A stretch of DNA of 64,000 nt from positions 78,978,676-79,042,675 of the forward strand of contig NC_057718.1 in NCBI RefSeq assembly GCF_004010195.1, read 5' to 3'. This DNA is from Chiloscyllium plagiosum (taxonomy: Eukaryota). Below the pieces are notes generated by a model, which was given only the letters and a program-made list of their open reading frames with translations, ran no database searches and was not told where the DNA came from. Positions 1,249-61,645 of the stretch are shown here, piece after piece (position 1 is the first letter of the stretch; each line of letters opens with the position of its first letter). Position numbers and translations under genes: made by a program.

Positions 1249-1530
1249 ATTATATTTTATGGGCAGTGTTTTCTTCGAATGGCCCTTTATAATTGATTTG
1301 TCAGAATGTTAGATGAACAGACTCTTCTAGCTCCTACTCGAGCCAGTGTTTCTTCACCTGACATGTTTTTAACAACACATTGGCTTGGGAAGCCAAGAAA
1401 ATCCAGTGAATAATCATTCTTGATCTCTTCCACCAAGAATATGATTCGGAGATGCCGGTGTTGGACTGGGGTGTACAAAGTTTAAAAATCACATCACCAG
1501 GTTATAGTCCAACAGGTTTAATTGGAAACA

Positions 1531-1565
1531 CACTAGCTTTCGGCGCGACGCTCCTTCATCAGTGA
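1531..1565 (-). ncRNA. Minimal hammerhead ribozyme motif (family A)
   Basis: Minus strand reads CTGATGA aggagcgtcgcgcc GAAA gcta gtg; core intact, one stem II mismatch. Confidence 0.6.
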
Positions 1566-1758
1566 TTGTGGAGGGCTCAATCGTAACACAGAATTTATAG
1601 CAAAAATTTGCAGTGTGATGTAACTGAAATTATACATTGAATTCTCCTCTGTGGTCCAGGACATTCAGCCTCAGACCTTCGGGTGACCATCCTCCAAGGT
1701 GGACTTCGGGACAGGCAGCAGAGGAAAGTGGCCGAGCAGAGGCTGATAGCTAAGTTCG

Positions 1759-2673
1759 NNNNNNNNNNNNNNNNNNNNNNNNNNNNNNNNNNNNNNNNNN
1801 NNNNNNNNNNNNNNNNNNNNNNNNNNNNNNNNNNNNNNNNNNNNNNNNNNNNNNNNNNNNNNNNNNNNNNNNNNNNNNNNNNNNNNNNNNNNNNNNNNNN
1901 NNNNNNNNNNNNNNNNNNNNNNNNNNNNNNNNNNNNNNNNNNNNNNNNNNNNNNNNNNNNNNNNNNNNNNNNNNNNNNNNNNNNNNNNNNNNNNNNNNNN
2001 NNNNNNNNNNNNNNNNNNNNNNNNNNNNNNNNNNNNNNNNNNNNNNNNNNNNNNNNNNNNNNNNNNNNNNNNNNNNNNNNNNNNNNNNNNNNNNNNNNNN
2101 NNNNNNNNNNNNNNNNNNNNNNNNNNNNNNNNNNNNNNNNNNNNNNNNNNNNNNNNNNNNNNNNNNNNNNNNNNNNNNNNNNNNNNNNNNNNNNNNNNNN
2201 NNNNNNNNNNNNNNNNNNNNNNNNNNNNNNNNNNNNNNNNNNNNNNNNNNNNNNNNNNNNNNNNNNNNNNNNNNNNNNNNNNNNNNNNNNNNNNNNNNNN
2301 NNNNNNNNNNNNNNNNNNNNNNNNNNNNNNNNNNNNNNNNNNNNNNNNNNNNNNNNNNNNNNNNNNNNNNNNNNNNNNNNNNNNNNNNNNNNNNNNNNNN
2401 NNNNNNNNNNNNNNNNNNNNNNNNNNNNNNNNNNNNNNNNNNNNNNNNNNNNNNNNNNNNNNNNNNNNNNNNNNNNNNNNNNNNNNNNNNNNNNNNNNNN
2501 NNNNNNNNNNNNNNNNNNNNNNNNNNNNNNNNNNNNNNNNNNNNNNNNNNNNNNNNNNNNNNNNNNNNNNNNNNNNNNNNNNNNNNNNNNNNNNNNNNNN
2601 NNNNNNNNNNNNNNNNNNNNNNNNNNNNNNNNNNNNNNNNNNNNNNNNNNNNNNNNNNNNNNNNNNNNNNNNN
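1759..2673. other. Assembly gap (N run)
   Basis: Run of N. Confidence 1.
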
Positions 2674-4503
2674 AACAGCTAACCCAATAATGCAACTTTA
2701 AAAAAAAGGATTTTGTGATTTACACATGAAAGAAGTGAAACTATCACTGTATTCTAACAGATGAAAGGCTGAACAGACAATCAATTCTTCAATGTATAAT
2801 TTCAGTTACATCACACTGCAAATTTTTGCTATAAATTCTGTGTTACGATCGAGCCCTCCACTATCACCTGATGAAGGAGCGTCGCTCCAAAATCTAGTGT
2901 TTCCAATTAAACCTGGTGTTGTGATTTTTAACCAAGAATATGGTTAGCACAGCAAGTATTGCAGATGCATTTCACAGGTTAGCATGTGAAGTATTATTAC
3001 GAATGACTAACTTCTTTCTGGATCACCTAAAATTGGAAGCGTGTGTGTGCATTCTTTTGAATTTATGATTGTTTTTATTTTGTCTGAATTTCCTCATCAA
3101 CTGTAATAAATTTTTAAGATGGTACTTTGTTCCGATATATCATAACTAACTTTGAGTCTACTCCAGGTGCACAACTGGCCAGTCAAAAGTCTTAATTCGT
3201 CTGTTTCTACCTTGCTGATGCAGCATTCACTTTCTGAGAGGACCTGGCCCTATTTATAAGAATGTGACTGATCTGTTCTGAGTAATATGGTCAATCCATG
3301 GTCACTGCAGATTTGCATGCTTGTTATCTGATGCTACATATTTAAATGCTTGACTACCAATCTTAACCATGTTACCTGTCACACTACCCAAGTTCTGAAG
3401 AACCACCCTATAGAAAATCAGTGATGTCAGTTATAAAGATGCCTGCCAGTTTCTCACTTTCATGCCAGTAAATCATTGTTCGATGTAGTGATCTGCAACC
3501 TACTTTCAGTAAGAGGGATATAACTGGGAAACACCATCCTGGGCCATTTTGGAAGTTCAAAGATTCAGCTTTTAAACCACTAAAGTAGTCTCATTTTTTG
3601 CTTTGTATTGCCATGCATGATGAGTAAGTCGATCAAACTGGATGAACCGAATAGTTTTGATAAGAACTCATTAACTTGTAATAATCTTGAGGCAAAAGTG
3701 AGAATTGGAAAAGGTGTGAGGAACAGCTCAAAATAGATGCTGTAAGTATAACAGATACAGTAATGAATCCAATGAACAATTCAAGAGATATCTTTGCTAA
3801 AAACTGTGGGATCAATATAAACTTCAATTGTATGATAGTAAATAGCATAGTTACGTTTAAAGGAAAACAGATTAAAATACATGAAGGAGAAAGGAGTAGA
3901 AGAATATAACTGGGTGAGTTAGATGAAATTTAGTGTGAAGATGTTCATTGCTATAGATTAGCTTGGTCTAATAGCCTTCTGTACTCTAAATTCTATATTT
4001 TACAAATATTCTTTTCAGAACCGCATACTTGTCTACTGGAAACTTGTCTGTCTTAGTTTCTGTTTTGTGGTATGTTGAATGTACGCTTGTAGCAATGTGG
4101 AAAATCTACTTGCCTTGCATTCCTCCCCTAAATGGTTTGTACATTATTACAACAGTAGGGAGTGACCATCGTCTTCATTACGTAGAGCAGAATTTAATTA
4201 AAGAAAATAATGCTTATCCACTCTAACCTAAACCATCAAGCTGTAGGGGGGGGGGCATGCATTTTAAAACAAAAGTCAGTTAAGTTAATAGGTTTTGCTA
4301 ACTAGTAAGTAAGGACTGATAGTGTTGTATTTGCAGTAAACCTAGTGAGTAAATTTAATTTGCACATGTCTGTAAAGCTAGATTTGAGAAACCTAAACAG
4401 TAATTATCCTGATCTTTGAAGATGTCTAGACGAAAAGTGTGTTTGGTTGCATTTAGGAGTTTGAGGCCATGTTTACTCCTAGCTACCATTTTAAATTAGT
4501 GAA

Positions 4504-4674
4504 ATTCTGGATTAGTGGTGCTGGAAGAGCACAGCAGTGCAGGCAGCATCCGAGGAGCAGTAAAATCGACGTCTATTTTACTGCTCCTCGGATGCTGCCT
4601 GCACTGCTGTGCTCTTCCAGCACCACTAATCCAGAATCTGGTTTCCAGCATCTGCAGTCATTGTTTTTACCTAT
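4504..4674 (+). mobile_element. Penelope pLTR-derived fold-back mini-element (family B) containing a 134-bp near-perfect palindrome
   Basis: 4504-4637 is palindromic about 4570/4571 with one mismatch. 12-bp TSD attagtgaaatt at 4495-4506 and 4675-4686. Confidence 0.85.
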
Positions 4675-6738: not shown

Positions 6739-8122
6739 GCAGGAAATTATAGACCAGTTAGTCAGACCCCAGTGGTGGGAAAGATGCTGGAGTCTATTAT
6801 AAAGGATGAAATTACGACACATCTGGATAGTAGTAACAGGATAGGTCAGAGTCAGCATGGATTTATGAAGGGGAAGTCATGCTTGACTAATCTTCTGGAA
6901 TGTTTTGAGGATGTAACTCTGAAGATGGACGAGGTACCTGGACTTTCAGAAAGCTTTTGATAAAGTCCCACATAGGAGGTTAGTGAGCAAAATTGGGGCG
7001 CATGGTATTGGGGGCAAAGTACTAACTTGGATTGAAAGTTGGTTGGCTGACAGGAAACAAGGAGTAGTGATAAACGGCTCCATTTCGGAATGGCATGCAG
7101 TAACCAGTGGGGTACCGTAGGGATCAGCTGGGACCGCAGCTTTTTACAATATATATTAATGATATAGAAGATGGTATTAGTAATAACATTAGCAAATTTG
7201 CTGATGATACTAAGCTGGGTGGCAGGGTGAAATGTGAGGAGGATGTTAGGAGATTACAGGGTGACCTGGACAGGTTAGGTGAGTGGGCAGATGCAGTTTA
7301 ATGTGGATAAATGTATGGTTATCCACTTTGGTGGCAAGAACAGGAAGGCAGATTACTACCTCAATGGAATCAATTTGGGTATTGGGGCAGTACAAAGAGA
7401 TCTGGGTGTTCTTGTACACCTGTCAATGAAGGTAAGCATGCAGGTACAGGAGGTAGTAAAGAAGGCTAATAGCATGCTGGCCTTCATAACAAGGGGGATT
7501 AAGTATAGAAGCAAAGAGGTTCTTTTGCAGCTGTATAGGGCCCTGGTGAGACCACACCTGGAGTAGTGTGTGTAGTTCTGGTCTCCAAATTTGAGAAAAG
7601 ACATTCTGGCTATTGAGGGAGCGCAGCGTAGGTTCACGAGGTCAATTCCTGGAGTGGCGGGACTACCTTAGGTTGAAAAACTGAAGCGACTGGGCTTGTA
7701 TACCCTTGAGTTTAGAAGACTGAGAGGGGATCTGATTGAGACATATAAGATTATGAAAGGATTGGACACTCTGGAGGCAGGAAACATGTTTCCGCTGACT
7801 GGTGAATGCCGAGCCAGAGGGCACAGCTTAAAAATATGGGGTAGACCATTTAGGGTAGAGATGAGGAGAAACTTCTTCACCCAGAGAGTGGTGGCTGTGT
7901 GGAATGCTCTGCCCCAGAGGGCAGTGGATGCCCAGTCTCTGGATTCATTTAAGAAAGAGTTGGATAGAGCTCTCAAGGATAGTGGAATCGAGGGTTATGG
8001 AGATAAGGCAGGAACAGGATACTGATTAAGGATGATCAGCCATGATCATATTGAATTGTGGTGCAGGCTTGAAGGGCAGAATGGCCTACTCCTGCACCTA
8101 TTGTCTATTGTCTATATTGTCT
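6739..8122 (+). mobile_element. CR1-clade LINE, 5'-truncated ORF2 (RT) and 3' UTR
   Basis: Motifs QHGFMKGKSCLTNLLE, ISKFADDTKL, LYRALVRPHLE, RRLRGDLIETYKI; (tattgtc)n tail. Confidence 0.95.
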
Positions 8123-8952: not shown

Positions 8953-8954
8953 TA

Positions 8955-11413: not shown

Positions 11414-11500
11414 TATCTTTGACCAAGACTGCTACACCACCTCCCATTTTACCCACACTTTCTCCTAAAAACCTTATAACCCAGGATATTACATGTCCAG

Positions 11501-11626
11501 GAGAAAGTGAGGGCTGCAGATGCTGGACAGTCAGAGTCAAAGTCTGGTGCTTGAAAAGCACAGCAGGTCAGGCAGCATACGGGGAGCCGGAGAGCTGATG
11601 TTTCAGGCATATGCCCTTCGTCAGGA
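11501..11626 (-). mobile_element. Penelope pLTR fragment (family B) beginning at a hammerhead core
   Basis: Minus strand cCTGACGA agggcatatgcct GAAA catc; similar to 19622-19750. Confidence 0.75.
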
Positions 11627-11629
11627 ATA

Positions 11630-14600
11630 TATGTGTCGATATAGTTCAAAAAGGGCTGCCATATTTTGTAGAATAATTCACCTTTTTTTTTGGTGCACCA
11701 TATTTGTGAGGAAGTCAAGGGGGGATATATTCCATGATTAACCTGTGCCTGTTCGAAAGTCCTGGAAGGCCTTCAGCTGCCCAATTCACTAAAATATTTT
11801 TCCTTGCACAAAAGGAGAAAATGGAAAATAGTTTCCTCCCATGCACGTCCAGGGAGGGAAAATCTGAAAAGCCCAAGAGCAGAGATGCTGGATCCAATCT
11901 AATCTCCGTTCCCAAGATCTCTGTCAAGGCATTCACTATTCTGTCCCAATACCTGCGGATCTTATGGCATGTCCATAGACAAAGCATGAGAGTGCCAACT
12001 ACTATTTTGCATTTAGGACACATTGGGGATGCTTCTACCTTAAATTTTGCGAGTCATTCAGGTGCTATATGAGCCCCGTGGAATATCTTTAATTGAATAG
12101 CTTGAGTTCTACTACAAATAGAGATCATTTTGGTGTTTCCCCTGATGTCCTCCCATGTTTCTGAAGAGATTTCTAACCCCAGTTCTTGGTTCCATGTTTT
12201 AAATAATCGTTCCATGTCTTTTCGATACCTCATTAAATAATGAATGATAAAGAGTACTGACCGAGGGCGGCTCCCTCGGCCATAGCACTCTTCTCTCCCT
12301 ATCTGATTTGTAGGGATTGCCTATTGGTGTGGTCTTATGTATATAATCTCGTATTTGAAAATACTGAAAAAGGTCCCTGTTAGGCAGTCCAAACTTCTGG
12401 TGCAACTGCTCAGAAGACATCATAACCTCCCCATCGAACAGGTCCCCCAAGCAGGAGATACCTCTGGACTTCCAAGTTTTAAATGTGGCATCCGTCAGCC
12501 CTGGCTGAAATCCCAATGCTTCCACGATAGGAGTATAAGGGGAGGTTTTTTGCAGGTTACCCTCATCTTGTCGCATTATCCTCCAGGCTTAAATTTTATT
12601 TAATACAATAGGGTTTTTGCAATAGTCCATAATAGCTCTCATCCTATCCATAAATAAAAGATTGATGGGGGGACACTTTGCTTGGGAGGTCTTAATATCT
12701 AACCAAATTGATTGGGTCTCTTGTGACCCACAGTCAGCTACATAAGATAATAAAGAGCTCAACTGATACCTCCTAAAGTCTGGAAAGTCCAGTCCTCCCC
12801 TTGCCTTTCTAATTTGATAAGGGGCCGTCTATGATTCAGATAAAGGAACCAAGCCAGCCGTGGAGCTTACAATGCCAGTCTCGGCAACATCAGAGGGAGC
12901 ATTCTCATAGGATATAGAAGACGAGGTAGAATATTCATTTTAACTAGGACTACTCTGCCTAACCAGGATATTGGGAGATCTCCCCAGCGTTTAAGGTACT
13001 ACCTTATTTTCTCTAATAGGTGCACAAAGTTGGCTTTATACAGCTGACCAAATACTGGGGTGATAAAAATACCCAAGTATAGGAAACCTTCCAGTGACCA
13101 CTGAAAGGGAAAGCAAGATCCGTCTGGTAAGTTGGATATACTGGCGAGACCACCCAATGGCATAGCCTCAGATTTCATAAAATTGATTTTATAGCCTGAG
13201 AACATACTAAATAGATTGACCACTTGAATTAGGTGGGGCATGGATATCAAAGTTGAAAAATGTGGTGCTGGAAAAACACAGCAGGCCAGGCAGCATCTGA
13301 GGAGCATAAGCCCTTCTTCATGGATATCAAAGGATCACTTAAGAAAAGGAGGACATCATCTGCATAGAGAGTAATTTTATATTTACCCGAACCAACCCTC
13401 GGAGCCGCTATGTTAGAGTCAGTTCGTATAGCTTTCACTAGTGGTTTGATTACTCGTGTGAATGATAATGGTGAGAGAGGACATCCCTACCTACACTGAA
13501 GCTATCCGAACCTAAACCATTGGTGACTGAAGCTGCTTTGGGGTCATTGTATAGTACTGAGACCCATTTGAAAAATACCTCTCCAACACCGAACCTTTCC
13601 AGTGCATAAAAAAAAATGGCCATTCTACCCGAACCAATGCCTTCTCTGCGTCCAAGGAGACAACTAACCCTGGTATTATTCCCTGATGACAGGCTTGTAT
13701 CATGTTTAAGACCCTTCTGATATTATTAGTTGATCTGCGGCCCTTAATAAACCCTGTCTGGTTCTCTTTTATGATGTATGGTAAGACCCTCTCCAAACTT
13801 AATGCTGACATTTTAGAAGGAATTTTAAAATCCACATTTAGCAAGGATATTGGCCTGTGCGATGAACAGTCTTCTGGAGCGTTTCCTTTTTTAAAAACGA
13901 GAGAGATATTTGCTTCCCTCAACGAAGGCTGAAGGTAGCTCTGACTATGTGAGTAATTATACATATTTATGAGTGGTCCAGCCAGGTCCCCTATAAATTT
14001 TTTATAAAACTCGACCTGGAATCCGTCTGATACAGGCGTTTTGCCACTCTGAAGCTGTCTAATTGCGTCGAGTACTTCCTGGGTTGTCAGGGGGGCATTC
14101 AAGATCGACACCTGCTCAGAGGTTAAGCCCGGAAAGGCCAAGTCTTTAAAGAAGGACTCCATCTTCTCAGTTCTATCCCCTCAGTCCTGCGATTTATACA
14201 GTTAAAAATAGAACTTTCTAAAGGCTGTATTGATCTTTTTACGATCACAGGTTAAAGTACCAGCACTTTCTCTAATGGATGTAATAGCTTGAGGAGCCTT
14301 TTTTATTCCCTAGCAAAGTATGCTAGGTATCTTAGACTTGTCACCATATTCATATAATCTCTGCTTTGCGAATAATATTTCCCTCTTTGCTCAAGGCTGC
14401 CCTAAGGGCTGTGATCCTTTATAGCTCAGTAATAGAGGGCCTATCAACATACGTTGTCTGAGCTGTCTTCAATCAAGCCTCGAGCCAGCACTTTTGTCTT
14501 TTCTGGGTCGCAGAATATGAGATGACCAAACCTCGCGTATAAGCCTTAATGGTCTCCCACATCGTCAACAGGTTACTGGCCGTACATGAGTTAATTTCCA

Positions 14601-15502
14601 AAAAGGTTTTGAATTCCTGAGAAAAATATTTTATAAATTTGCTATCCTTCAATAAGAAAGAATCCATACCCCAATGTTGGGGGGCCTGACCCATCGTCCC
14701 TAGTCTTGACTTCCATATATACTGTGTCATGATCAGAAATAGCTGTATTACCTATTTTACAAGATAATATGGAATTCAAAAGGGTCAAGGGAGCAAAGAA
14801 CATATCAATTCTGGCATGGCACTTGTGTGGGCTAGAGTAGAAAGTAAAGTCTCTACCCTGGGGGTGAAGGCACCCCCACACATCATCTAGCCATAGCTCC
14901 TTTTTCAGATCCGCCAGTTGTCTAGATCTAAGAGATATACCCATAGTGCTCTTAGGTGTTCTATCTGTCTCTGGGTCCATAACACAGTTAAAACCTCCTC
15001 CCATAATTGTATGGTGGACCCCAAAAGCCATCAACTTAGAGAACTCTTCCGTTACAAATTTAAACGGGTGCGCCCGTGGAGGGGGGGGGGGGGGTGCAAT
15101 AAAGATTCAAAATTCCATATTTCTCTCCATATATTAGGGCTTTGATCAGTATATACAGTCCAGACTCATCTTTTATCTGGCTCAACATTTGGAAAGGAAA
15201 ATTCTTCCGAATGAGAATGACTACTCCCCTACTTTTCGAACTGAAAGATGAGAAAAAAGCCTGATCAAATCTGCCCTGTTGTAGCTTTAAGTGCTCTTTG
15301 TCAAGTAGATGTGTCTCCTGTAAGAGATTAGTTAGTCATTTTAAACTGTCCAAGTTTGATGTAAAATGACTGACTACGCTAGGCAAAAGCTATCTTAAAT
15401 GATTTAAAGGGTGTGGTGAAGACGAGTGCCCCACTTTGCCTGAGTCTTAGGCAGAGCGCGACAGACTCAGACTTGCTGGATCGCTGCCATCTTGAAACCC
15501 CC
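11630..15502 (-). mobile_element. L1-clade LINE: decayed ORF2 (APE endonuclease, RT, Cys-rich end) with retained 5' end, ORF1 absent
   Basis: Motifs LQETHL, GGGFNCVMDP, ARIDMFF, ISDHD, RPISLLNVDFKI, SLDAEKA, LYADDVLLF, CPKC...LWTC. 5' end gggggtttcaagatggcagc. Confidence 0.9.
13253..13318 (-). mobile_element. 66-bp Penelope pLTR fragment (family B) inserted in L1 RT
   Basis: 14-bp direct repeat catggatatcaaag at 13239-13252 and 13319-13332. Confidence 0.8.
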
Positions 15503-16180: not shown

Positions 16181-17165
16181 TTGTCTCTATGTCTGGGATT
16201 GGGGTTCTAGACTTGGTTTCCATTACTCCATCCTCTGTAAACTTCAGTTTATTTAAATCTGCTTATTGTGTTACACCCAAGACCATGTCATGCTCCTCAG
16301 TAACTACTTTTCCTGCTGATCTGGATTGGCTTTCAATTGTCCATACCTCAAATTTAAAATCCTCAATCCTCTCTTTAATGGATTTTTTCTCATCTTGCAG
16401 CAGCACAGAATTGCAGTGGATAAGCATCAATGAGTAAGGCCATTTGGCTGTATCACTGCACACCGGTGATTTGTGATCTCCAGAGCCTCTCCTTACACTC
16501 CCTAATCTAAGATGTTATCTGAATAATCTCCTATTCCTTCTACCTCATGAATTGAAGGGAAACCTTGGATGCTACGTAAACTGCAGTAAAAAGATTGAAT
16601 TTCCAAGACCAATTTTTTTCCTTATGGCAGAACTCATAGTTGACTTTAGTATGGATTTTGTGTCTAAGTGAAATTGTAGGAAAACAGTTGTGCTGGAATT
16701 AAATTAGAAAAAGCTAAATAATTCACTAATCGTTATATTACATGACCGCAGATACCATTATTATAATGCATGGAGTGCAATTTATGACGAAACATAGAAG
16801 ATAGGAACAGGAATAGGTCATTTGTCCCTTTGAACCTGCTCCATCATTGAAAATGATGTAGCTGATCATCTAACTCAGTAAGCTGTTCCTGCTTTCTCCC
16901 CATATTCTTTGATATCTTTAGCCCTAAGAACTATATCTGATTCCTTCTTGAAAAAATTCAATGTTTTTATCTCAGCAGCTTTCTGTGGAAGAGAATTCCA
17001 CAGGCTTACCATTCTCTGGGTGAACAAATTTCTCCTGATCTGTGTCTTGAATGGCCTACCCCATATCCTAAAACTGTGACACCTAATTGTGGACTCCCCA
17101 GTAATTGGAATAATCTACCCTGTATTTTCCCAGTCTTGTCCTGTTAGAATCCTTCCACTGATGAG

Positions 17166-17355
17166 ATTAAAAATCTCTCAACACCAGGATATAATCCAAC
17201 AGGTTTATTTGGAAGCTCTAGCTTTCGGAATACCTGATGAAGGAGCAGCGCTCTGAAAGCTAGTGCTTCCAAATAAATCTGTTGGACTATAACCTGGTGT
17301 TGTGAGATTCTTAACTTTGTACACCCCAGTCCAACACTGGCATCTCCAAATCATG
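17166..17355 (+). mobile_element. Penelope pLTR fold-back mini-element (family A)
   Basis: 17166-17229 is an inverted copy of ~17252-17313; flanked by tccactgat(g/a)ag duplication. Confidence 0.85.
17231..17265 (+). ncRNA. Minimal type I hammerhead ribozyme, apparently intact
   Basis: tac-CTGATGA-a-ggagc-agc-gctct-GAAA-gcta-gtg: stem I tac/gtg, stem II ggagc/gctct, palindromic AGCT stem III. Confidence 0.7.
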
Positions 17356-18959: not shown

Positions 18960-19298
18960 TTCTGTTAGCATTGTTTATCCATGTGGTTAATGTTGTGAAG
19001 AAGCCTAGGTAGCCTGTTTTTCTAATATTGCTTCAGGGATAGACACTAGCTGGAACACAGTTGCTCTTCATTGAGATAGTGTGTTGGGGATTTTTTCTAG
19101 AGGAATCGAAGTGAGCAGGTGGGGCCTCTTGTATTAACATTTCATCTGAAGGGCAGCACCTTTCACAGTGCAGTAATCTCTGTGCTCCATTGGGCTGTCA
19201 ATCTTGCTTTTAACTCACTTAAGCCCTGCAGCGGGACCTGTACCTGTGACCTTGTTTTCAAAAAGGCAAGAATGCTGCCACTGAGCCACAGCTGACAC
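18960..19298 (-). mobile_element. Deu-SINE (SacSINE1-like), degenerate
   Basis: Minus strand gtgtcagctgtggctcagtgg head and Deu-domain-like ctgcactgtgaaaggtgctgcccttcagatgaaatgttaa...gaggcccc. Confidence 0.7.
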
Positions 19299-19621
19299 AA
19301 ATTAGCCATAACAGTTCATTGTGAAATCCTTCAAAATCATATTGATCAGAATATGAATCACTGAACCATTCGCTCATGTATAACATTGAAGATGACAAGG
19401 AAAGTTGGTATACATCGTTTATTGGTAGTTTGGTATTGTTGTTCTGCAGATAATTGTCCTCTGTACCGTCAGACACATTTTAGATTATACTTTTGAAGAT
19501 ATGGAATCAAATTAGTTCCACATAAGACTGTCCATCTATTTCTTCCACAGTTGACCAAAAATAAAGCATTAGGTGTAACATTTGGATTTTCAGCATGTAT
19601 TTGATTAGGTACCACAAGTGG

Positions 19622-20208
19622 GAGAAGGTGAGGACTGCGGATGCTGGAAATCAGAGTTGAAGAGTGTGATGCTGGAAAAACACAGCCGGTCAGGCAGCAT
19701 CTGAGGCGCAGGAGAATCGATGTTTCGGGCATAAGCCCTTCATCAGGAATGAGGCTTGTGGCCCATGGAGGCTGAGAGGTAAATGGGGAGAGGGGTGCTG
19801 GGAATGTGATAGGTAGATGAAGTTGGGGGTGAAGGTGATAGGTCGGAGAAGAGGGTGGAGCAGATAGGTCAGATGGGAAGATGGGAAAGAAGATGGACAG
19901 GTCAAGAGGGCGGTGCTGAGTTGGAGGGTTGGATCTGGGATAAGATGGGAGAGGAAATGAGGAACCTGGTGAAATCCACATTGATCCCGTGTGGTTGGAG
20001 GGTCTCAAGGCGGAAGATAAAGCATTCTTTTTCTCTGTGTAGGGTGGTAAAGGTTTGGCAGTAGAGGAGGCCCAGAACTTGTATGTCCTTGGTGGAGTGG
20101 GAGGGGGAGTTGAAGTGTTCAGCCATGGGGAAGTGGGGTTGTTTCGTGCTTGTGTCCCGGAGATGTTCTCTGAAATGTTCTGCAAGTTGGTGTCCTGTCT
20201 CCCCAATG
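19622..20208 (-). mobile_element. Penelope-like element 3' part (family B): GIY-YIG-region C-terminus plus pLTR with hammerhead
   Basis: AEHFNSPSHS...IFRLETLQPHGINVDF; minus-strand CTGATGA agggcttatgccc GAAA catc at ~19718-19748. Confidence 0.85.
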
Positions 20209-20214
20209 TAACAG

Positions 20215-20440
20215 GTATGGGAGATGAGGAATTTCTTTATTTGAGGAGACTGGATCTGTGGATTTCTTTACTGCAGAGGACTGTCGAGATTGATTTATTA
20301 AGTAGATTCAAGTCAGAGATTTTTAATCAAGGGTATGGAAAAAAAGGCATAGGAGTAGGTGTGAAGGTGATCTGATCAACTATGATTTCATTTAATGGTG
20401 GAGCAGACTTTATGGGCTGAATAGCCTACTTCTATATCTT
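20215..20440 (+). mobile_element. CR1 3' end fragment
   Basis: Similar to the 7860-8100 3' region. Confidence 0.7.
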
Positions 20441-20559
20441 ATCCCCTACCTCTTCTGAGATGTGTAGTGGGGTGTCACTGGATTCCCTATAGTTACAACT
20501 ATAGGGAGTTGAGGGTGGGCTAACGATAGGAGAGCTCACTGATTCCTGTGGTTGAAGTG

Positions 20560-20775
20560 AATAGGGAAAAGACTTAAGGAAGAGTGGCTGAGTGTTTACG
20601 GTATGGGGAAGATGAGCTTTATCTAGTGTGTCATAGAGTCAAACTGGTGGTGTCACTATAAGTTCTGTGTCCTATGTTGCTGCCCCACTCGTTACCTGAT
20701 TAAGGAGCAGCGCTCTGAAAACTAGTACTTCCAACTAAACTTGTTGGGCTGTAGTCTGGTGGTGTGATTTTTAAC
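20560..20775 (+). mobile_element. Penelope pLTR fragment (family A), degenerate hammerhead
   Basis: cctgattaaggagcagcgctctgaaaactag...ggtgtgatttttaac. Confidence 0.7.
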
Positions 20776-20779
20776 TTAA

Positions 20780-21320
20780 GTCATACAGCATGGAAATGGA
20801 CCCTTCAATCCAACCAGTCCATGCCAACCATACCTGTAATCCCAAACTAAACTAGTTCCACCTGTCTGCTCCTGGTCCATATCCCTCCATACCTTTCCTA
20901 TTTATCTACTTATCTAAGTGTCTTTTAAATGTTGTAACTGTGCCTAGATACACCCCTTCCTCAGGATGCTCATTTCACACATGAACCATTCCCTTTGTAA
21001 AAAAAAATTATCCCCATATGTTTTTTAATTCTGTCTCTTCTCACCTTAAAAAATATCTCATAGTCTTTAAATCCCTGGTTCTAAGAAAAAGAAACTCACC
21101 ATTAGCCCTGTTTATATACCCTCTACATGGTCACCTTTCAATATCCTGCACTCCAGTGAAAAAAAGCCCCAGCCTATCCAGCCTTTCTTTGTAATTCAAA
21201 CCTTCCATACACAGTAACATCCTGGTAAATCTCTTCTGAACCCTCTCTAGCTTAATAATATCCTTCCTGTAATCTGGTGACTAGAACCGGACACTATTCC
21301 AGAAGAGGCCTCACCAATGG
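20780..21320 (-). mobile_element. HER1/CR1 3' fragment
   Basis: Similar to the 35245 and 41920 3' ends. Confidence 0.8.
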
Positions 21321-36957: not shown

Positions 36958-37047
36958 CCTGAAGAAGGGCTTATGCCCGAAATGTCGATTCTCCTGTTCC
37001 TTGGATGCTGCCTGACCTGCTGCGCTTTTCCAGCAACACGTTTTCAG
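36958..37047 (+). mobile_element. 90-bp Penelope pLTR insertion (family B) starting at the hammerhead core
   Basis: cCTGAAGA agggcttatgccc GAAA tgtc; 14-bp TSD cattggtatacttt at 36944-57 and 37048-61. Confidence 0.85.
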
Positions 37048-37067
37048 CATTGGTATACTTTTAGTGA

Positions 37068-39110
37068 GATTTGAGAAGATTTACAGCTCAGGTTGAGGTT
37101 CTGGATGTAAGTTTGCTCGCTGAGCTAGAAGGTTTGTTTTCAGACGTTTCATCAACATACTAGGTAACTTAATCAGTGAGCATTTGGTGAAGCACTGGTG
37201 ATATGGCCCGCTTTTTATTTACGTGTGTAGGTGTCTTTGGGTTGGTGATATCATTTCCTATGGTGATGTTATTTCCTGTTCTTTTTCTTGGGGGTGATAA
37301 ATGGGATTCAAGTCAATGTGTTTGTTGATAGAGGTCCGGTTGGAATGCCATGTTTCTAGGAATACTCATGCGTGCCTCTGTTTGGCTTGTCCTAGGATAG
37401 ATGTGTTGTCTCAATCAAAGTGACGTCCTTCCTCACCTGTATGTAAAGATACTAGTGAGAGTGGCTCATGTCTTTTTGTGGCTAGTTGATGTTCATGTAT
37501 CCTGGTGACTAGTTTTCTGCCTGTTTGTCCAGTGTAGTGTTTGTTACGGTTCGTGGAAGGTATTTTGTAAATGACATTAGTTTTGCTTGTTGTCTGTATA
37601 GGGTCTTTCCAGTCCATTAGCTGCTGTTTTAGTTTGTTGGTGGGTTTGTGCCAAGAAGTCTTGAAGTCTGGCAATCATTTCTGAGATGTCTTTGATGTAG
37701 GGGAGTGTGGTTAAGGTTTCTGGACTAGTTTTGTCTGTTTGTTCGTGTTTGTTGCTGAGAAATTGGTGGACTGTGTTCATTGGGTACCCGTTCTTTTTGA
37801 ATACATGGTATAGATGACTTTTCTCTGTTCTTTGTAGTTCCTCTGCTGCAGTATGTGCAGATATTGGAATGATTGCTTCTGTAGTTCAGTGTTTGGTCCG
37901 TATCTTTTGTTTTCCTCTAGATGCTGGTTTGAAGTTCTCCATGGCTGTTTGCTTTACTGCGACATCTAGGAATGGCAGTTTGTTGTTTTCCTCTTCTTTA
38001 GTGAATTTTATGCCAGTTGATGGTCTTGAACGTTTCCTCTAATTTGTTTCATTTAGTGATGATAGAGGTGTCATCCACGCAGCAGACCCAAAGTTTGGGT
38101 TGAATGGTTGGCAGAGCTGTTTGCTCAAGTTTCTGCATTACTGCCTCTGCTAAGAGCCCTGATATCGGAGATCCTTTAGGTGTTCAGTTGACTTGTCTGT
38201 AGGTTCTGTTGTTGAAAGTGAAGCGGGTGGTAAGGCATAGGTCCACTAGCTTGACGGTATTCTCCTTGCAGATGAAGTTGATGGTGATTGGTGTATGTGC
38301 CTTTGGTTCTTCTATTACTGTAGTCAGTGTTTCCTTGGTTAGGTTGATGTTGCTGGATGTGAATAGGGCTGTTACATCAAAGCAGACCATTATTTCATCC
38401 TCTTCTATCTTGGTGTCTTTGGTCTTCAGGAAAATCACCTATACAGTGTATTCAAAAAGAACGAGTACCCAATGAACAATCTGCCAATTTCTCAGCAACA
38501 AACACACAAAACTCACCCAGAAACCCTAGCCACTCTCCCCTACATCAAAGACATCTCGGAAATGATTGTCAGACTACTCAGACCGCTTGGCACAAACCCA
38601 CCAACAGCTAATGAACTTGAAAGACCCTATACAGACAACAAGCAAAATTAATGTCATTTACAAAATACCTTGCAAGAACCGTAACACAAACTACATTTGA
38701 CAAACAGGCAGAAAACTAGCCACCAGGATATATGAACATCAATTAGCCACAGAAAGGCATGATCCATTCTCACTAGTATCTTTACATACAGATGAGCAAG
38801 AACACCACTTTGACTGGGACAACACATCCATCCTAGGGAGACACGCACGAGAATTCCTAGAAGCATGGCATTCCAACCGGACCCCTCTCTGGAAACAAAT
38901 TGACTTGAATCCCATTTACTATCCCTGAGAAAAAGGACAGGAAATAACATCACCACAGGAAATGACATCACCAACCCAAGGAAACCTAAACACAATTATA
39001 AAAAGTGAGCCATAACATCAGTACTTTACCGGAGGCTCTCTGATGATACCTAGTATGGTGACGAAACGTTCGAAAGCAAACCTTCCACCTCAGTGAGCAA
39101 ATTTACATCT
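37068..39110. mobile_element. Penelope-like element (family C), large inverted structure: RT and GIY-YIG on minus (to ~38430), 3' part repeated on plus
   Basis: MVCFDVTALFTS, WV(C)(C)VDD, NVIYKIP...YTGQTGRKLVTRIHEH; hammerhead-like ends at ~37140-37178 (-) and 39040-39072 (+). Confidence 0.9.
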
Positions 39111-39229
39111 ATAGGTATTCTTGTGACGTTTGTAATGTCTTGTTAAATGCAAAATGAGCACCTTCGACATACGGTCTTTTGGCAGTGCCCAAGTGCAGTA
39201 CTACCAAACATCAATTAGGAACAGCGCAG

Positions 39230-40060: not shown

Positions 40061-41403
40061 TCTGTTTTTTGCACTAGGGATTGCCTCATTAGGATTTGAA
40101 TGCGTTGCATTCCTTTATCAGCGCTGGTCATTCATTCACCTAGAGGGAAGTCCTTGGCCTGCTGATACTACTTCCTGAACCATTTTTAGTGCTGATTTAC
40201 GATTGTTTTCTACCCCCAACGGCAGGGCAATGATGCAGGTCCCAAGTCTACTTCAGCTGGAATGGGAGTCAAATGCACACTTTTGGCATTTTTCTGAACC
40301 ACATGTTGATCATCTAACCACCTTAGCTAACCAATTAACTTATGATCATATATTCACGGTGCAATCTAGTGAACACTACATTTGATCATTATACTTTTCA
40401 CTTGCAGTGCCAAATTGTAGAATACCTGCAATACGCAAGACATGTGTTTGATCTACATTGCCTGCATATGTTTATTAGAATCTACTCGAATTCCTGGATC
40501 TCTTTTAGCTCCATTTTAGCTACAGTATATTGCAACACTAGACACCAAAGGCTACTTTTTTTTATTTTTAGGTGTATCACTATCTTGTCTGCATTAAATT
40601 ATATCTGCAGTTTTGTCCACTTAAATGTCTTGCCAATCTCATCCTTTAATCTCTTGCCTGCTTAGTTTGATTGCAATGCCAATCCAATTATAGTCTCCTT
40701 TGTAAATGTGATGACTTTACTTTAAGTTTTGATATTCACATACATTAAATTTATCTATTTTATCTTAAGACTGGTACTTTTCACGTCACTTGCTAATATA
40801 ATCTCACACACTCTTACTTTTCACTTTTCTAGTTCTGCTCTGTACAGTCTATATTCTGTTTTGTTTCTTGCGTGCATAAAGAACCTGACTTGAAACTTTT
40901 TCTCTGTTTCACTTTGGTCTTTATTGACAGCCATCTGGGAGTTTTAACCCTGGATGCCTTCCTGTATCCCTCATGGAATCTTCTCTTGGAAGCCCTTCCA
41001 CTGCCATTTTACAGTTTTATTGGTCAGTCTTTGATTCCGTTCCACCTGTATCCAGTTATTTTTTTAAAGTTTATCACTGTTAGATCTCCTCTTTCTGTCC
41101 CACCTTGTGTGTTTGTGCACTTGATTTATATGTTTTTCCAGAATAGTTCTAAAATTAGTGATGTTTTGATTCCTGTTCTGCAAAAGCTAACCTGCTGAAA
41201 CATATTGCACTTTCCCACTTCATTCCCCTGAACTAGGTCCAGCAATTGTGCCTTTAACCCAGAAACCTGTTGATCAAGAAAGTACACGTATCAGGTATTC
41301 TTTCTAATTACTTTTTATTATTTTCCAAATCTATATTATTTTCTACTCTGTACTCTGATAATTGAAGTCTTCTATTTATCACTATTTTAAGATTCTTGTA
41401 TCT

Positions 41404-41482
41404 TCCTGATGAAAGATTCAGACTTGAAATGTTGACTTCCCTGCTCCTCATGCTGCTTGATCTGTTGTGTTTTTTCCAGCTC
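41404..41482 (+). mobile_element. Penelope pLTR fragment starting at a hammerhead core
   Basis: cCTGATGA aagattcagactt GAAA tgttgac...tgctgcttgatctg. Confidence 0.65.
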
Positions 41483-47082: not shown

Positions 47083-47398
47083 GGGTGGCTCAGTGTTTGG
47101 CACTGGTTCAAATCCAGCCTCTGGGCAACTGTCTTTGTGGAGTTTGCACATTCTCCCCTTGTCTGGGTGTTTTTCCTCCGGGTGCTCTGGTTTCCTCCCA
47201 CAGTCAACCATGTGCAGGTTAGGTGGATTTGCTGTGCTAAATTGCCCAAAGTGTCCAGGGATGTCCAGGCTAGGTGGATTAGCCAGGGTAAATGCAGGGT
47301 TATAGGGGTGTGGAGGTGAGTCTGGGTAGAATGCTCTTTGGAGGTTTGGTGTGGACTCGATGGGCTGAATCGCCTGCTTCCATACTGTAGGGATTTTA
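47083..47398 (+). mobile_element. HE1-type V-SINE (older) just upstream of the MAP3K4 exon
   Basis: V-domain tgtggagtttgcacattctcccc...ttcctcccacagtc. Confidence 0.85.
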
Positions 47399-47464: not shown

Positions 47465-47649
47465 GGAAAACAAAAAATCAGGGGATGTAGCTTCTGAAGA
47501 TATTGAATCAGATGAATATTCTGATGAATCTAGCATTGAAGGTTTTTATGGAACTTCACCACCTAGTACCCAACGACAGATAAAACGCATGTCAACTAAA
47601 CATCACAGGAATAACGTTGGGAAAACAGACAGTCGCTCTGGTAATAAAG
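47465..47649 (+). CDS. MAP3K4: Internal coding exon (exon 2 equivalent) of mitogen-activated protein kinase kinase kinase 4 (MEKK4)
   Basis: Acceptor ttttcatttctcAG and donor AAG|GTTAGT; entry phase 2, exit phase 1. Translates ENKKSGDVASEDIESDEYSDESSIEGFYGTSPPSTQRQIKRMSTKHHRNNVGKTDSRSGNK, matching the recalled vertebrate MAP3K4 segment YGTSPPSTPRQMKRMSTKHQRNNVG. Confidence 0.93.
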
Positions 47650-54400: not shown

Positions 54401-54431
54401 TATCTTTCACTCCATATCTTTTTATGCCATT

Positions 54432-54616
54432 ATAAAAGAAAAGTACTGCAAATGCTGGAGATTTGAAGAAAGAACAGTGCTGGAAGATCTCTGCAGATAT
54501 AGTTGAGTTCACATGTCAAGTCTAATATGACTCTTCTGTGGACTCAATGTTAACTTAGTTTCACTCTCCACTGATGCTGCGAGACTTGCTGAGTTTCTCT
54601 AGCATTGCTGTTTCTA
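54432..54616. mobile_element. Degenerate Penelope pLTR fold-back inside a CR1 3' fragment
   Basis: tactgcaaatgctggaga...gtgctggaagatctc and the inverted ...gctgagtttctctagcattgctgtt. Confidence 0.5.
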
Positions 54617-56426: not shown

Positions 56427-56739
56427 TTATAGGCTAGAGTCCAGACCAGATTTATTACAGTTCAAAGGTTTCCAGAAGATGCAGAAGAGTCATTAGTAAT
56501 TCTTCAATGTGCAACTGAGCGAATGTTTTGTTCATAATCCAATGTTTTCCTTAAATTGAAAATAGCAGCAATATGCGTCAGACCACTCATTAAATGGAGT
56601 GAAAAATCAGCTGACATTTGAGTGTCCCCATTAGAACTTGAGGCTGTCTGCTTAGTACAGAGACCCCTCACTGATGGGATATATTTTAAACATTTGCAAG
56701 CCCTGTTGCATAGAAGAGCAATAGCAGTAGATAGGGAAT

Positions 56740-57389
56740 TTTAGAGAAGAATTAGAGCTCAGGTTGTGGATCAAGTTGTCAGTTTGTTCGCTGAACTGGT
56801 GGGTTTATTTTCAGATGTTTCATCACTATACTAAGTAACATCTAGTGATCCAAGCTTCTAGTGAAGCATTAGTGTTCGGTCCTGCTTTTGCTGTGTCTTA
56901 GTTTGTTGTGGTGTGTGATATAATTTCTGGTTCTGTTCCTCAGAAGTTGGTAAATGCAGTCCAAATCTGTGTGTGTTAATGAGTTGCGGTTTCTATGCCA
57001 CACATTTAAGAATTCCTGCGCATGTCTTTGTTTGGCCCGCCTCGGGGTGGATGCATTCTCCTGGTCGAACTGGTGACCATCTTCACAGACAAAGAGGGAC
57101 ACCAGTTCGACTGGGACAGGCCAAACAAAGACATGCGAGGGAATTCCTAGAGGCCTGGCATTCAAACTGGAACTCCATTAACAAGCACACAGATTTGAAC
57201 GGCATTTGCCAACTTATGAGAAACAACTGGAAATTACATCTCGCACCACAACAGACCAAGACACACACACAGCAAGCGGGACTGAACACCAACGCTTCAC
57301 CGGAGGCTCACTGATGATGTTGTTACCTAGCATAGTGATGAAATATCTGAAAACAAACCCACCAGCTGAACGAGCAAACTCCCAACCTG
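56740..57389. mobile_element. Penelope (family C) fold-back with ~300-bp arms
   Basis: AKQRHA(Q/R)EFLxxWH encoded on both strands; hammerhead-like CTGATGA...GAAA at 57311-57343; pivot near 57083. Confidence 0.85.
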
Positions 57390-59310
57390 TTAGAAGAGAA
57401 TTTGTGGGATGTGGTGCTCCCATGTAAATTGCATGCCAACTGATTTGGAGCTAGAACTGTCAGCTGCATCAAAATCTTAGGTGTGTTTCTAATAGCTCTG
57501 CGAGTGTACACATGCCATGTGGCCTCTGGCTCACTGCCACCTAAATCAAGGGCAATAAATTCTGGCCTTGCTCATCCCAAGCGCAGACTTTGAAGAAACA
57601 AAATCTTTTAGTTGTTTTAAGTTTATGACATGTTCAGTTTTATGCTTTTTATTACCCAGAATCAGAGGACAGAGCTGATGCATGACATTTTTTAATGCAG
57701 TTACGTTATGATTTGGAATACATTGTCTGAAAGTGGGATGGAAGCAGATTGAGTGGTAACTTTGGAGAAGGGGCAGAGGAATTAAATTGGGTATTATTCC
57801 AAAGAGCCAGCAAAGTTCCAATGCACTGAATGGCTTTCCATATACTATGATTCCATGATGTCCTTTATAGCTGCTTATTGCAAACTCTTGATCTCTATAG
57901 TAGTAATAAGTAAATGGCTCATTGTAGAGGTATGTATGACTCCACCTTGGTAAGATAAACAGAGCTAACATATGGCAGCAGACTTGATATTTTTGCGTTG
58001 GATCCATTTGTCCAGTTTCTTTTTGGGCAGTAATGTTCCGTTAGGATTGCAAATACATAGTTGTCCAAGTTAGTCCTTTTAAAAAAAATCAAGTAGGACT
58101 TTTGTAAAACCAGTGCCATAAGACACACTAGTTTGTCTAAAATTAATGGTTATTGAATTTATAGTTAAAACGCTCTGTCCCCTCAAGTGAAGGTAACCTT
58201 TACCATAGCTAATTCATAAATTAATCGTGCCTATTTCTGTTGTATGGTTAGCCATTTTAAACTTTGTGAAAGAGTTTTTGCCTTGGATTTCATATTTTTA
58301 TATTTTATTGCTTGCACTTTTAAATGACGTGAAAGCAAAGACGAAATAGCAAAACAATTTGAGCTTTGTTGCAGTTTGTGTTATCAAAACTTGTACTGGT
58401 TTTAGATGGATGAAAACTCAGCTGCAACTTTCTTGGCCCTTCCCTTATTTAAAATCTACCCTGATGAATAGCAGGAATTGTGCTCTGATGGTTCAATAAT
58501 TTCTTTTTGTAGCAGTTTCAGTTGACTTGTTGGCTATAGTGTTGTAGTAATTCTGCGCTCTCAATGAAATTAATTATTCAAGTTCATGCCGCAGGCTGAT
58601 TAAGTATTTTCCACTGTTGGTTTTATAATTAAGTAACATATCATCAAAGCTTTTACGTTAATGTGATTCAGCCTTATTTGAAGGTGAGTTGAGTGCAAAT
58701 TTCTGTTTTATGATGCTACCCAATACTCATTCCATAGACTGTCAGCCTTTGGCTCTGGTGACCAAAGGAAAACATATTTTGTTATGGGAACTGAATTAAA
58801 AAATGAAATATGTTTATTTCTTGCATGATTGCTGTTCTTTTTATAGTTTAGTGATGTGGTTAATTATGGCTTCAACATTAACCAATTATTAAAGTTAAGC
58901 AAATATTTTATATTGCTTCTATTAATTTGATATTTATTGATATTGTTAGAACTAATCAGGTTGCGTATTTTACTATTGACAGTTTCAGGTCTGACTAAAT
59001 ATATCCCTGCTTTAGCATTCCAAATGTGCCCATTTGCCTCTACTTACAATTTAAAGTTTTCATTTTGATATATAATATATAGCTATTAAATATTATAATC
59101 CCAGTTTGGAAAATATTGGGCAAACCTGATATTTTTAAAAATCTGGTTGTTAGACCATAAACCACGTCAAGAATACAAAGTGTGGAATATTCCTAGAGTA
59201 CTGACCTTTGACAATGTTGGAAATGAAGTCCCTTTAAAAATTGACCAGAGCGCACACTAGAGATAATGGAGAGCCGTTGATGCTCATTGGAACATACATT
59301 TAGGGGCTGG

Positions 59311-59425
59311 TGGGCTCCTGTGGCACAATGGTGGTATCCCTATCTCTGGACTAGAAGGCCCAGGTTTAAATTCCACGTGCTCCAATCATATGTGATAACA
59401 TCTCTGAACAGGTTGATTAGGAAAT
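59311..59425 (+). mobile_element. Short tRNA-derived SINE
   Basis: Similar to 21511-21628, including aacatctctgaacaggttg. Confidence 0.7.
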
Positions 59426-61062
59426 TTAGAAAAGGCTGTTTTCTTCATTAGGGTGGTTGGTTCAAAAAGAGATAACCTATTGGAGCTTGTATTGAACTAT
59501 GAAATGCAAATAACAGTTGTAGAAAGCTGACTTCTGTTTTCTGCTTTGGTAAATGGGCGCTCAGCAATACAATGTGACAGTAGAGGATTAATTTTGATCC
59601 GTTCACATAGGAAGATAATTTTTTATCTGACAAAAGTATTGCTTCCAGGACTTCCTGATGCAAAACAACCTGAGTCATGTTTTCGGTGGTCTAACTATGA
59701 TCACCCGCTTATTTTTTTGGAATTTGAATCGTGGAAACAATGGAGGAATGAAATGTAAATCTGAACTCTATTTCCGTATCCAAGAGGAAATGAGGAATGG
59801 ATTTGGATTTGTCTTTAACTGGAAAAAGTAAAGTGTTTTCAGAACTGAATGAAAGCTACTTTGATGCTGAAGATTTACAAGAGAGCTAATTTGTCGGATG
59901 TCTACGAGAAGTGGTCGACTTCCGATAATTTAAGGTGACGGCCAATCAGCCCGTGGAACGATAAATCATGAATTTTGATTACTTTTCAGTCTTTAATCTA
60001 ACATCAGAATACTGGAGTCTGTGCTTTAAAATTATTTTACACTTATTAAACATTTGGATAGATATTTGATTTTGACTGGTCTACGTTCTGTGGTAATGAT
60101 TCTCTTCTCTTTTAAAACAAATGGCTGCTGCCCTAAACCAATTCAATTCCAGCTACCTTTTTGTCACAAATTAGAGATTCTGCAGTGGTACAGAGAATGG
60201 AGGACTCCATGGTTTTTGACTTTCAAGATCATTGGAGCCTTGCCATAGACACTTGTCAGCAACATCCTCTTGATACAAGTATTCTGAGATCGTTTGTACT
60301 TTTATTGGATGGTGTGGATCAGGACAATGCATGAGATTTGGATTGCCACCAAAAACAATGGAATCCTAACAATACACAAGGAGTGATCAATAGGCATTTT
60401 CACTGTAAGTCAAGGTATGCAAGGAATTGTCCTAAAACCAGGAACAGGAATTCACTTCAAATATATTAAACAGGTGGTTCTGTTGATGCTCATTGCGGCA
60501 TACATTTAAGGGCTGTGGTGGGCTTTTGTGGCACAATGATGGTATCTCTACCTCTGGACTAGGAGAAAAAAAGATCCACAAATATTGTATCAGTTGTTCA
60601 GAATTGAAATTGAGCCGTGAATATCTTTGTCTGCAGTTTATTCAATTATGCTTTATTGGATGATGGATGTACCTCAGTGTAGCATTAATTGGAAAACTCT
60701 TAGTTCAAAAGCTTTGACTAAGCAAATTAATGTACAGTTAAAGAATACAAAAGCACCACCTGCTTTATTTTGAGGGGTGATAGGAGGACCATTCCAATAT
60801 TAATGTACTATGAGATCTAAATGGAAAAAGCTGAATTCCAGAGATCAGGTTAGAGTGATTACTTTTGACATCAATGAGCTGTAGCGATACTGGAATCAAT
60901 GGAGAAAAGCTCTGCTGTTGGAGTCATTCCTGGCCCATTAGAAGATGGTTGTGGTTTTTGGAGGCCAATCATCTCAGTTCATGACATCGTTGCAGGATTT
61001 GCTAATGATAGTGACCTAGGTCCAGCTACCTTCAGCTGCTTCATCTGTGACTGTTCCCCATT

Positions 61063-61236
61063 TAGAAGAACCTCGATTATGCGAAGGACACAGGCAGGGA
61101 ATATTTCATTCAGTTAGTCGAAATTCAGATAATCGAATGCTGGATAACATAATTTAACCGAGCATCGGGATCTTGTGATTTTGCCAGATAATCTGATATT
61201 CAGATAATCGAATGCCAGATAATCGAGGTTCCTCTG
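61063..61236. mobile_element. Tigger-like MITE, inverted sibling of 45998
   Basis: Termini agaacctcgattat / gataatcgaggttcctctg|TA. Confidence 0.85.
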
Positions 61237-61494
61237 TATAAGGTCAGAGTTGGAGATGTCTGCTAATGTTCAGCACCATTCGTGCTGCTGCATGTATTGA
61301 AGCAGTCCATGTCCAAATGCAGCAAGGCGTGGACAATAGCTAAGCTTGGGCTAAAAAATCAAAAGTAATATTGCTGCCACAAATGCCAGGCAATGATCAT
61401 CTCCAAAACGATAATCTAGCCATTGCCTCTTTACATTCAATGGCATAACCATCACTGAGCCCCCGACTATCAACATTCTAGCAGGAAAGGGTGT

Positions 61495-61645
61495 TGGTGA
61501 GGACTGCAGATGCTGGAGAGTCATAGTTGATAAAGTGTGGCACTTGAAAAGGCACAGCAGGTCAAGCAGCATCCGAGGGGCAAGAAAGTTGACATTTTGG
61601 GCATAACCCTTCATCAGGACTGGGGAGGGGGAAGGGGGCTGACAA
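61495..61645 (-). mobile_element. Penelope pLTR fragment (family B)
   Basis: gtgaggactgcagatgctgg...gggcataacccttcatcagg. Confidence 0.75.

Follow-up and report, generated by a model that had tools for sequence, protein, structure and literature searches.

In a 64,000-nucleotide stretch of the genome of the shark Chiloscyllium plagiosum (NC_057718.1, positions 78,978,676 to 79,042,675 of the forward strand; hereafter the window, numbered from its first letter), we analysed hammerhead ribozyme motifs that an earlier note, made from the letters alone, had assigned to three families (A, B and C) of Penelope-like elements (PLEs). The reading that we favour, with a probability of about 0.88, is that these motifs are minimal hammerheads in a state of decay, located within the 3′ ends of truncated PLE copies from three families, two likely of the Neptune type and one likely of the Poseidon type, and that the copies are likely old and now functionless. 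We treat as observed the family membership, the reverse transcriptase (RT) and endonuclease remnants, the head-to-head structure, the one-sided tail, the duplications and the damage to each copy; the steps of the mechanism are drawn from PMC11167929 and PMC4209133.

Hammerhead motifs of three families

The earlier note had listed at least 12 motifs in three sequence contexts, and all 13 positions that it gave (13/13) carry a hammerhead-like motif of the family named. Seven lie on the plus strand and six on the minus strand, the strand having been left unstated: the numbers 1531, 11596, 19718, 37140, 56818 and 61596 are the low-coordinate edges of minus-strand motifs, whose C3 positions are 1562, 11624, 19746, 37176, ~56849 and 61617, respectively. 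As family patterns the motifs show an extra base after A9, a G10.1-C11.1 pair, a palindromic 15.2-16.2 and no helix III loop, the helix III palindrome being AGCT in family A and ACGT in families B and C. The sequence of helix II differs among the families with its pairing kept: GGAGC/GCTCC (A), GGGC/GCCC (B) and GTTACC/GGTGAC-like (C).

The 3-bp stem I and palindromic stem III that the earlier note ascribed to each motif describe the family pattern but fail copy by copy, as helix I of family B is 2 bp, and core and Watson-Crick palindrome are both kept in only four of the 13 motifs (1562, 17234, 39040 and 57311), none of them from family B. All core bases were kept in eight of the 13 when read copy by copy (1562, 17234, 11624, 19746, 36959, 41406, 39040 and 57311), and core, palindrome and helices I and II together in two (17234 and 57311). 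Much of this damage we infer to be CpG decay.

Chance was assessed by running a minimal type I descriptor on the window and on 20 dinucleotide shuffles, which gave 2, 5 and 9 matches in the window at zero, one and two mismatches against shuffle means of 0, 0.05 and 0.9; among the nine loose matches, 46342 lies outside all families and 57314 is a duplicate of 57311. Over the window Rfam returned six matches at E ≤ 1, none of them a hammerhead, and an exact 25-nt motif of family B had no match in either metagenome or viral contigs. Profile searches brought four further pieces: a half motif at 17164-17230 (minus strand), a deleted family B copy at 13253-13318 (minus strand) and the two coreless arms of a family B palindrome at 4507-4674. 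The 12 insertions total 5.8 kb, or 8-9% of the window, and the claim that these elements saturate the intron was overstated. An old, weak inverted pair at 54445-54607 has family-B-like ends (E 0.00015 and 0.009) and an unrecognisable core, and is perhaps a fourth family.

Coding remnants and insertion anatomy

In every family at least one insertion is joined to PLE coding remnants, on the same strand and upstream of the hammerhead, which bears out the view that these are minimal type I hammerheads of PLE pseudo-long terminal repeats (pseudo-LTRs) and that a shark carries several such lineages. The family B remnant in 19621-20215 (minus strand) is 65% identical to the Chiloscyllium protein P0001, an RT-endonuclease with a CxxxxCxxC linker, and the family A remnant at 1641-1757 (plus strand) shows 92% identity with Chiloscyllium P0012 and 62% with P0028, a full-length protein in which the linker is present. 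The family C remnants of the insertion 37062-39112 are 56-84% identical to Stegostoma P0005, which is without the linker and is matched from RT through endonuclease. RT and then GIY-YIG remnants follow in order at 38432-37369 in this family, whereas A and B hold endonuclease remnants only, the RT being present in their relatives. The best named relatives of all these remnants are proteins of Chiloscyllium, Hemiscyllium and Stegostoma, in keeping with a carpet shark.

Neptune and Nematis are distinguished by a CX2-5CxxC linker that lies between the RT and the endonuclease (PMC8557442). This linker occurs in the relatives P0001 and P0003 (family B) and P0028 and P0029 (family A), the window remnants ending short of it, and because the linker is present in these relatives and absent from that of family C, families A and B are likely Neptune-type and family C likely Poseidon-type, as judged from sequence comparison. 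The Pfam set comprised 260 open frames (259 of at least 62 aa, from 560 of at least 45 aa, plus the 39-aa family A remnant), in which the only matches were pieces of RT and endonuclease of the long interspersed nuclear element (LINE) type, a single weak match to GIY-YIG, another to KA1 within a LINE remnant, and MEKK4_N. P0005 matched no solved structure. Two family C copies, 39040 and 57311, have an ATG at the core/helix II and a common frame, and a protein search with the 45-aa N-terminal frame of this family gave 0 of 2 candidates. In the Chiloscyllium gene models P0012 and P0014, part of a family A endonuclease is fused to a membrane protein resembling a receptor; these models are likely either exonised PLE sequence or chimeras made in annotation.

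Five insertions are head-to-head, with their 3′ ends outward and one arm 31-38 nt longer in 5/5, and two 3′ ends lying 31-38 nt apart were found in all three families. Target-site duplications are clear in five of the 12 insertions (9-14 exact bases), weak in two and absent from five. At least three of the five inverted insertions have a short palindrome at their junction or next to it, and in 4507-4674 the helix III palindrome itself forms the junction. Published PLE copies are inverted and 5′-truncated, with a one-sided tail of 30-40 bp and junction palindromes (PMC8557442, PMC3846280), and all five inverted insertions fit this anatomy; unlike the published cases, the arms here are often the pseudo-LTR end alone, and one junction falls inside a helix III palindrome.

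The closest mechanistic account is that of PAc, the Poseidon element of Anolis carolinensis (Frangieh et al. 2024, PMC11167929), whose protein nicks both strands of AT-rich DNA and initiates reverse transcription internally on the RNA, at two sites by which the tail is defined. Its hammerhead cleaved only in the presence of the protein, was dispensable for insertion in vitro and showed no RNA-seq ends at the cut site (PMC11167929). The window fits this scheme in its two 3′ ends per family, its copies of uncleaved RNA and its inverted inserts with a long and a short arm. Family C shares with PAc the missing linker, and the ATG at the core/helix II of its two copies may correspond to the open reading frame start that PAc has in helix II; all families share the paired 3′ ends. 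Unlike PAc, the window has no intact open reading frame, and families A and B are likely Neptune-type, the biochemistry of that study being that of Poseidon.

By this scheme, the element protein would nick AT-rich target DNA and reverse transcription would start inside the element RNA, downstream of the hammerhead, at one of two sites 30-40 nt apart, so that short and tailed 3′ ends would result. Copying would pass through the uncleaved hammerhead and stop early, and on extension of both target strands a short palindrome would serve as the head-to-head joint between two copies. In ancestors that were active, the hammerhead would have cut only as a dimer or with help from the protein; at their present sites the motifs are likely inactive.

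Family A includes a Neptune-type head-to-head insertion at 1441..2930 (minus arm 1441-1641 with the tail, plus arm 1641-2930), flanked by a duplication of 12-15 bp (1432-1446 and 2931-2945). The plus arm carries the C-terminal endonuclease remnant (1641-1757, plus strand) and a 915-N assembly gap before its hammerhead, which lies at 2865..2899 (plus strand) and has lost G12; the minus-strand hammerhead at 1528..1565 keeps core and palindrome and has a broken helix I. A small head-to-head insertion at 17163..17355, with a duplication of 9-12 bp, joins a minus arm bearing the half motif to a plus arm with the whole motif and a tail. This whole motif (17231..17265, plus strand) is the best-kept hammerhead of family A, with core, palindrome and helices I and II, and is in the sense of the host gene MAP3K4, described below; its AATAAA (17276-17281), also in MAP3K4 sense, is a possible intronic poly(A) site. 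The solo copy at 20640..20777 (plus strand) has lost G8 and has the short 3′ end.

The family B palindromic insertion at 4507..4674 has arms that meet at the helix III ACGT (~4570), no core, a tail on the right arm and a duplication of 12-15 bp. Its family B ends make up a 134-bp hairpin, nearly perfect, which is a source both of double-stranded RNA and of false microRNA matches, and the Rfam microRNA matches at 4481-4657, which score under the gathering thresholds, reflect this palindrome. Minus-strand copies of the family are a tailed short copy at 11500..11630, which starts at the 5′ edge of the hammerhead and keeps the core with helices I and III broken (no duplication found); a short copy at 13253..13318, within a LINE remnant, with an internal deletion across the hammerhead and a perfect 14-bp duplication; the 5′-truncated Neptune-type insertion at 19621..20215, with a GIY-YIG remnant (19962-20210), C-rich 3′ untranslated region (UTR), hammerhead (C3 at 19746, palindrome broken) and tail; and a truncated, tailed copy at 61497..61640, with ~20 nt of C-rich UTR upstream and G12 lost. 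On the plus strand, an old short copy at 41403..41482 starts at the hammerhead 5′ edge, its core kept and most of helix II lost, and a 90-bp insert at 36958..37047 starts one base before C3 between the halves of a perfect 14-bp duplication (36944-36957 and 37048-37061). A family C insertion directly adjoins this insert and has a right flank (39114-39122) similar to the insert's duplicated target, possibly reflecting two insertions into one AT-rich site.

That family C insertion, of Poseidon type and head-to-head, spans 37062..39112: its minus arm holds broken RT and GIY-YIG remnants, a hammerhead (37176) that has lost G8 and the tail, and its plus arm an endonuclease remnant and a hammerhead (39040) with the core kept and the helices damaged. 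A second head-to-head insertion of the family, at 56730..57390, contains remnants of the endonuclease end, a tailed minus arm with a destroyed motif (~56849) and a plus arm with the motif 57311. The latter hammerhead (57308..57350, plus strand) passes the descriptor, with a 3-nt duplication before helix II and an ATAT palindrome that likely arose by CpG decay on both strands.

Short family B copies and the state of the ribozyme

Reads were mapped to positions 19590-20789 of the window at 80% likeness, from one RNA run and three shark DNA contig sets (organisms A, B and C), and the loose ends and joints given below come from the best 24 of 3448 loose-end rows and the best 15 of 883 joints. The contigs matched per DNA run numbered 89,301-97,296, which are contigs and not copy numbers. 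Organisms B and C have orthologous contigs across the 5′ junctions of both 19621 and 20640, and these two insertions are therefore old.

DNA depth in the bin of the family B hammerhead was 18-24x that of the next upstream bin and 4-5x that of the best endonuclease bin. Among the loose ends listed, those leading in all three DNA sets fall at 19749-19751, 3-5 nt upstream of C3, roughly half running on into AT-rich sequence and half into G-rich. At 19750 (653, 578 and 714 contigs) they run into AT-rich sequence with an agreement of 0.30, as expected of unique flanks; at 19751 (731, 643 and 742 contigs) they run into G-rich sequence, which is the element's own ordinary C-rich UTR. The cut site (19718/19719) is absent from the best six loose ends of every run, pointing to an uncleaved template. 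Within the window, the 5′ core is whole in five family B copies, of which three begin 1-4 nt ahead of C3, one of them with a perfect 14-bp duplication; an A at N7 is common to both copies that have 14-bp duplications. As a lead, these data suggest that many family B copies begin at the 5′ edge of the ribozyme. A splice-acceptor origin of the short copies was ranked low, the insert at 36958 abutting its duplication without a leader; the copy 61617 has a pyrimidine tract and AG before the core, an arrangement also reported in D. virilis (PMC4209133).

We lean towards regarding the hammerhead-start copies of 90-130 bp as short products of the autonomous families' own internal-priming reaction, with no separate system behind them; most simply, they would end at the RNA end or where ATT microhomology lets the second strand prime. 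The clustered starts in three of five copies, one with its perfect duplication, the excess depth over the hammerhead in all three DNA sets, the 19750 ends in AT-rich sequence and the shared A at N7 could also speak for a separate non-autonomous family, in which a 90-130 nt RNA starting at the hammerhead and transcribed from its own master copies would be mobilised by the Neptune protein. We consider this unlikely: neither tRNA gene nor B box was found, a long copy that retains coding sequence of the endonuclease (19621-20215) has the same 3′ ends, and the comparable count of loose ends at 19751 runs into ordinary UTR. Moreover, AT-rich targets share microhomology with the ATT that precedes the core, ATT being preferred by the Anolis enzyme (PMC11167929), the evidence comes from the best 24 of 3448 loose-end rows, and the pile-up may be an artefact of a reference copy that is atypical just upstream and halts alignments. 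Slightly less doubtful, and offered tentatively, is a very abundant, discrete 90-130 bp class in sharks, derived from Neptune and beginning precisely at the hammerhead 5′ edge, whose 5′ end would be the true RNA 5′ end and whose members would be "strong-stop"-like products of priming within the upstream pseudo-LTR, some of them self-amplifying mini-elements without a promoter. The earlier suggestion of a SINE-like (short interspersed nuclear element) system found no support in the window, which has 0 tRNA genes and no Rfam match to tRNA, 5S or 7SL; a B box is present in 0/8 short inserts, and loose A-box matches occur in 4/8, antisense in three of those.

In the RNA run, of which ~2% was read, 3035 of 12,955,460 records matched, 99% of them from other loci. 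No RNA record containing 17100-21000 was listed in a separate search. No pile-up of starts or ends was listed, a poly(A) single-cell library being a weak test of cleavage. The AATAAA/ATTAAA signal is kept in four of the five family A copies in the window, and 125 RNA reads pass into poly(A) ~15 nt downstream of it (20747), reads that may stem from few loci. For three copies the active dimer fold was calculated at -7.9, -7.4 and -1.2 kcal/mol against -18.5, -19.0 and -15.5 kcal/mol for the best co-fold.

Greater conservation of the core bases than of downstream sequence was seen in family B and not in the pooled data or in families A and C. In this comparison gaps were ignored and the core is without CpG, which biases it toward the core. 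Pooled, 10/152 core cells and 92/843 downstream cells differed (p=0.11, not significant), with 2/49 against 16/211 in family A (p=0.54) and 7/42 against 14/130 in family C (p=0.42, no excess).

Three observations weigh against reading the motifs simply as fossils of truncated PLE copies. The family B core has 1/61 differences against 62/502 downstream (p=0.008), a conservation that fits selection in active masters and with which some selection after insertion is also compatible. Random truncation alone would be expected to spread family B ends more widely than the sharp accumulation seen at the hammerhead 5′ edge. Finally, the window has no full-length element, and the clade assignments depend on a single linker motif and on proteins related to short remnants (34 aligned residues in family A).

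Host gene, alternative origins and significance

One open frame matches the Pfam family MEKK4_N (E 2.7e-15) and identifies an exon of the host gene MAP3K4 (MEKK4) at 47465..47649 (plus strand), which is 185 nt long and AG/GT bounded, and is presumably exon 2 by the structure of the human gene. No second host exon was seen among frames of at least 62 aa, which shorter exons may escape, nor was a CpG island in 2-kb bins of the window, and the location of exon 1 was not found. The motifs thus likely sit in two MAP3K4 introns with this exon between them, and not in one as had been stated; relative to the gene, seven are in sense and six in antisense orientation.

Given this setting, one or two intact sense copies (17234 and 57311) might have been co-opted to cut or terminate the MAP3K4 pre-mRNA. 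Both pass the strict descriptor in host sense, and 17234 keeps the AATAAA just past whose counterpart the 125 family A reads end in poly(A). We hold this to be very improbable, however, as each copy is part of an inverted repeat and would likely be paired with the antisense arm, their active dimer folds (-7.9 and -1.2 kcal/mol) fall far short of the best co-folds (-18.5 and -15.5), the orientations are unbiased (7:6), and published minimal hammerheads are described as without monomer cleavage (PMC4209133) or dependent on the element protein (PMC11167929). Equally remote is the idea, raised in the earlier note as a retrozyme-like system, that the elements are non-LTR retrozymes, with tandem hammerhead repeats giving circular RNAs. 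Such retrozymes derive from PLE pseudo-LTRs and are reported in one chondrichthyan (bioRxiv 10.64898/2026.07.22.740005), and a few head-to-tail joints from 19750 back to 19661 were seen (2, 0 and 4 contigs). Yet a hammerhead lies in 0/5 tandem arrays of the window, the paired motifs are on opposite strands, from which one transcript cannot release a circle, and the motifs are minimal and not the canonical type I of retrozymes (PMC7229834). The likeness to non-LTR retrozymes extends to dispersed, non-coding, hammerhead-bearing monomers of PLE pseudo-LTR kinship, and ends at the missing tandem units and the minimal motif (PMC7229834, bioRxiv 10.64898/2026.07.22.740005). That the motifs are chance matches within repeats might be argued from the missing Rfam hammerhead and from the strict descriptor, which most copies fail, but it is refuted, and virtually excluded in our view, by the five matches against 0.05 expected at one mismatch and by an identical core flanked in three families by helices that differ and still pair.

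Other repeats share the window. A long LINE remnant with endonuclease and RT pieces (11715-15106, minus strand) is split by the family B insert at 13253-13318, and related LINE-type RT remnants or 3′ ends lie at 6739-8022, 17408-18263, 22261-22491, 33761-35677, 41916-43998 and 62351-64000; we take this group to be CR1-like. A ~300-bp repeat, which we assume to be a shark SINE or LINE tail, occurs at 629-1247 (tandem at 629-1229), 31879-32167 and 47103-47393, the last just upstream of the MAP3K4 exon. An exact 84-bp direct duplication, 125 bp apart, lies at 42825-43033 and may be an assembly artefact.

Decayed PLE hammerheads of this kind have precedents. Minimal hammerheads with a CUGANGA/GAAA core were described by Cervera and De la Pena in 2014 in the pseudo-LTRs of metazoan PLEs, with several families per genome, mostly as solo motifs from truncated elements, and with opposite-strand pairs 100-700 bp apart; they were reported in fish Xena, Poseidon and Neptune, with no monomer cleavage (PMC4209133). 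Feature by feature, the window motifs match these in the core, the extra base after A9, the G10.1-C11.1 pair and the loopless palindromic 15.2-16.2; they differ in the shark host and in their helices I (2-3 bp) and II (4-6 bp), shorter than the Schistosoma values. The claim that such elements are poorly described in chondrichthyans was upheld in part: the literature search brought no shark-specific description, with Repbase, Dfam and the supplements of PMC4209133, PMC8455134 and the preprint, which may list shark families, outside its scope. The kind itself is known, Penelope being listed for the whale shark (PMC8455134) and non-LTR retrozymes reported for one chondrichthyan in the 2026 preprint (bioRxiv 10.64898/2026.07.22.740005).

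Our analysis extends the 2014 observation to shark repeats and adds little new biology. The copies are fossils, and their value is as raw material: ~90,000 contigs per DNA run match one 1.2-kb stretch, implying that shark genomes record very many PLE insertions. A discrete class of family B copies beginning at the true RNA 5′ end, if it exists, would together with the family A poly(A) site just past the hammerhead suggest an LTR-like template jump in PLE replication, and the 5′ pile-up, if real, would bear on how PLEs copy from an internal start and on what purpose the ribozyme serves.

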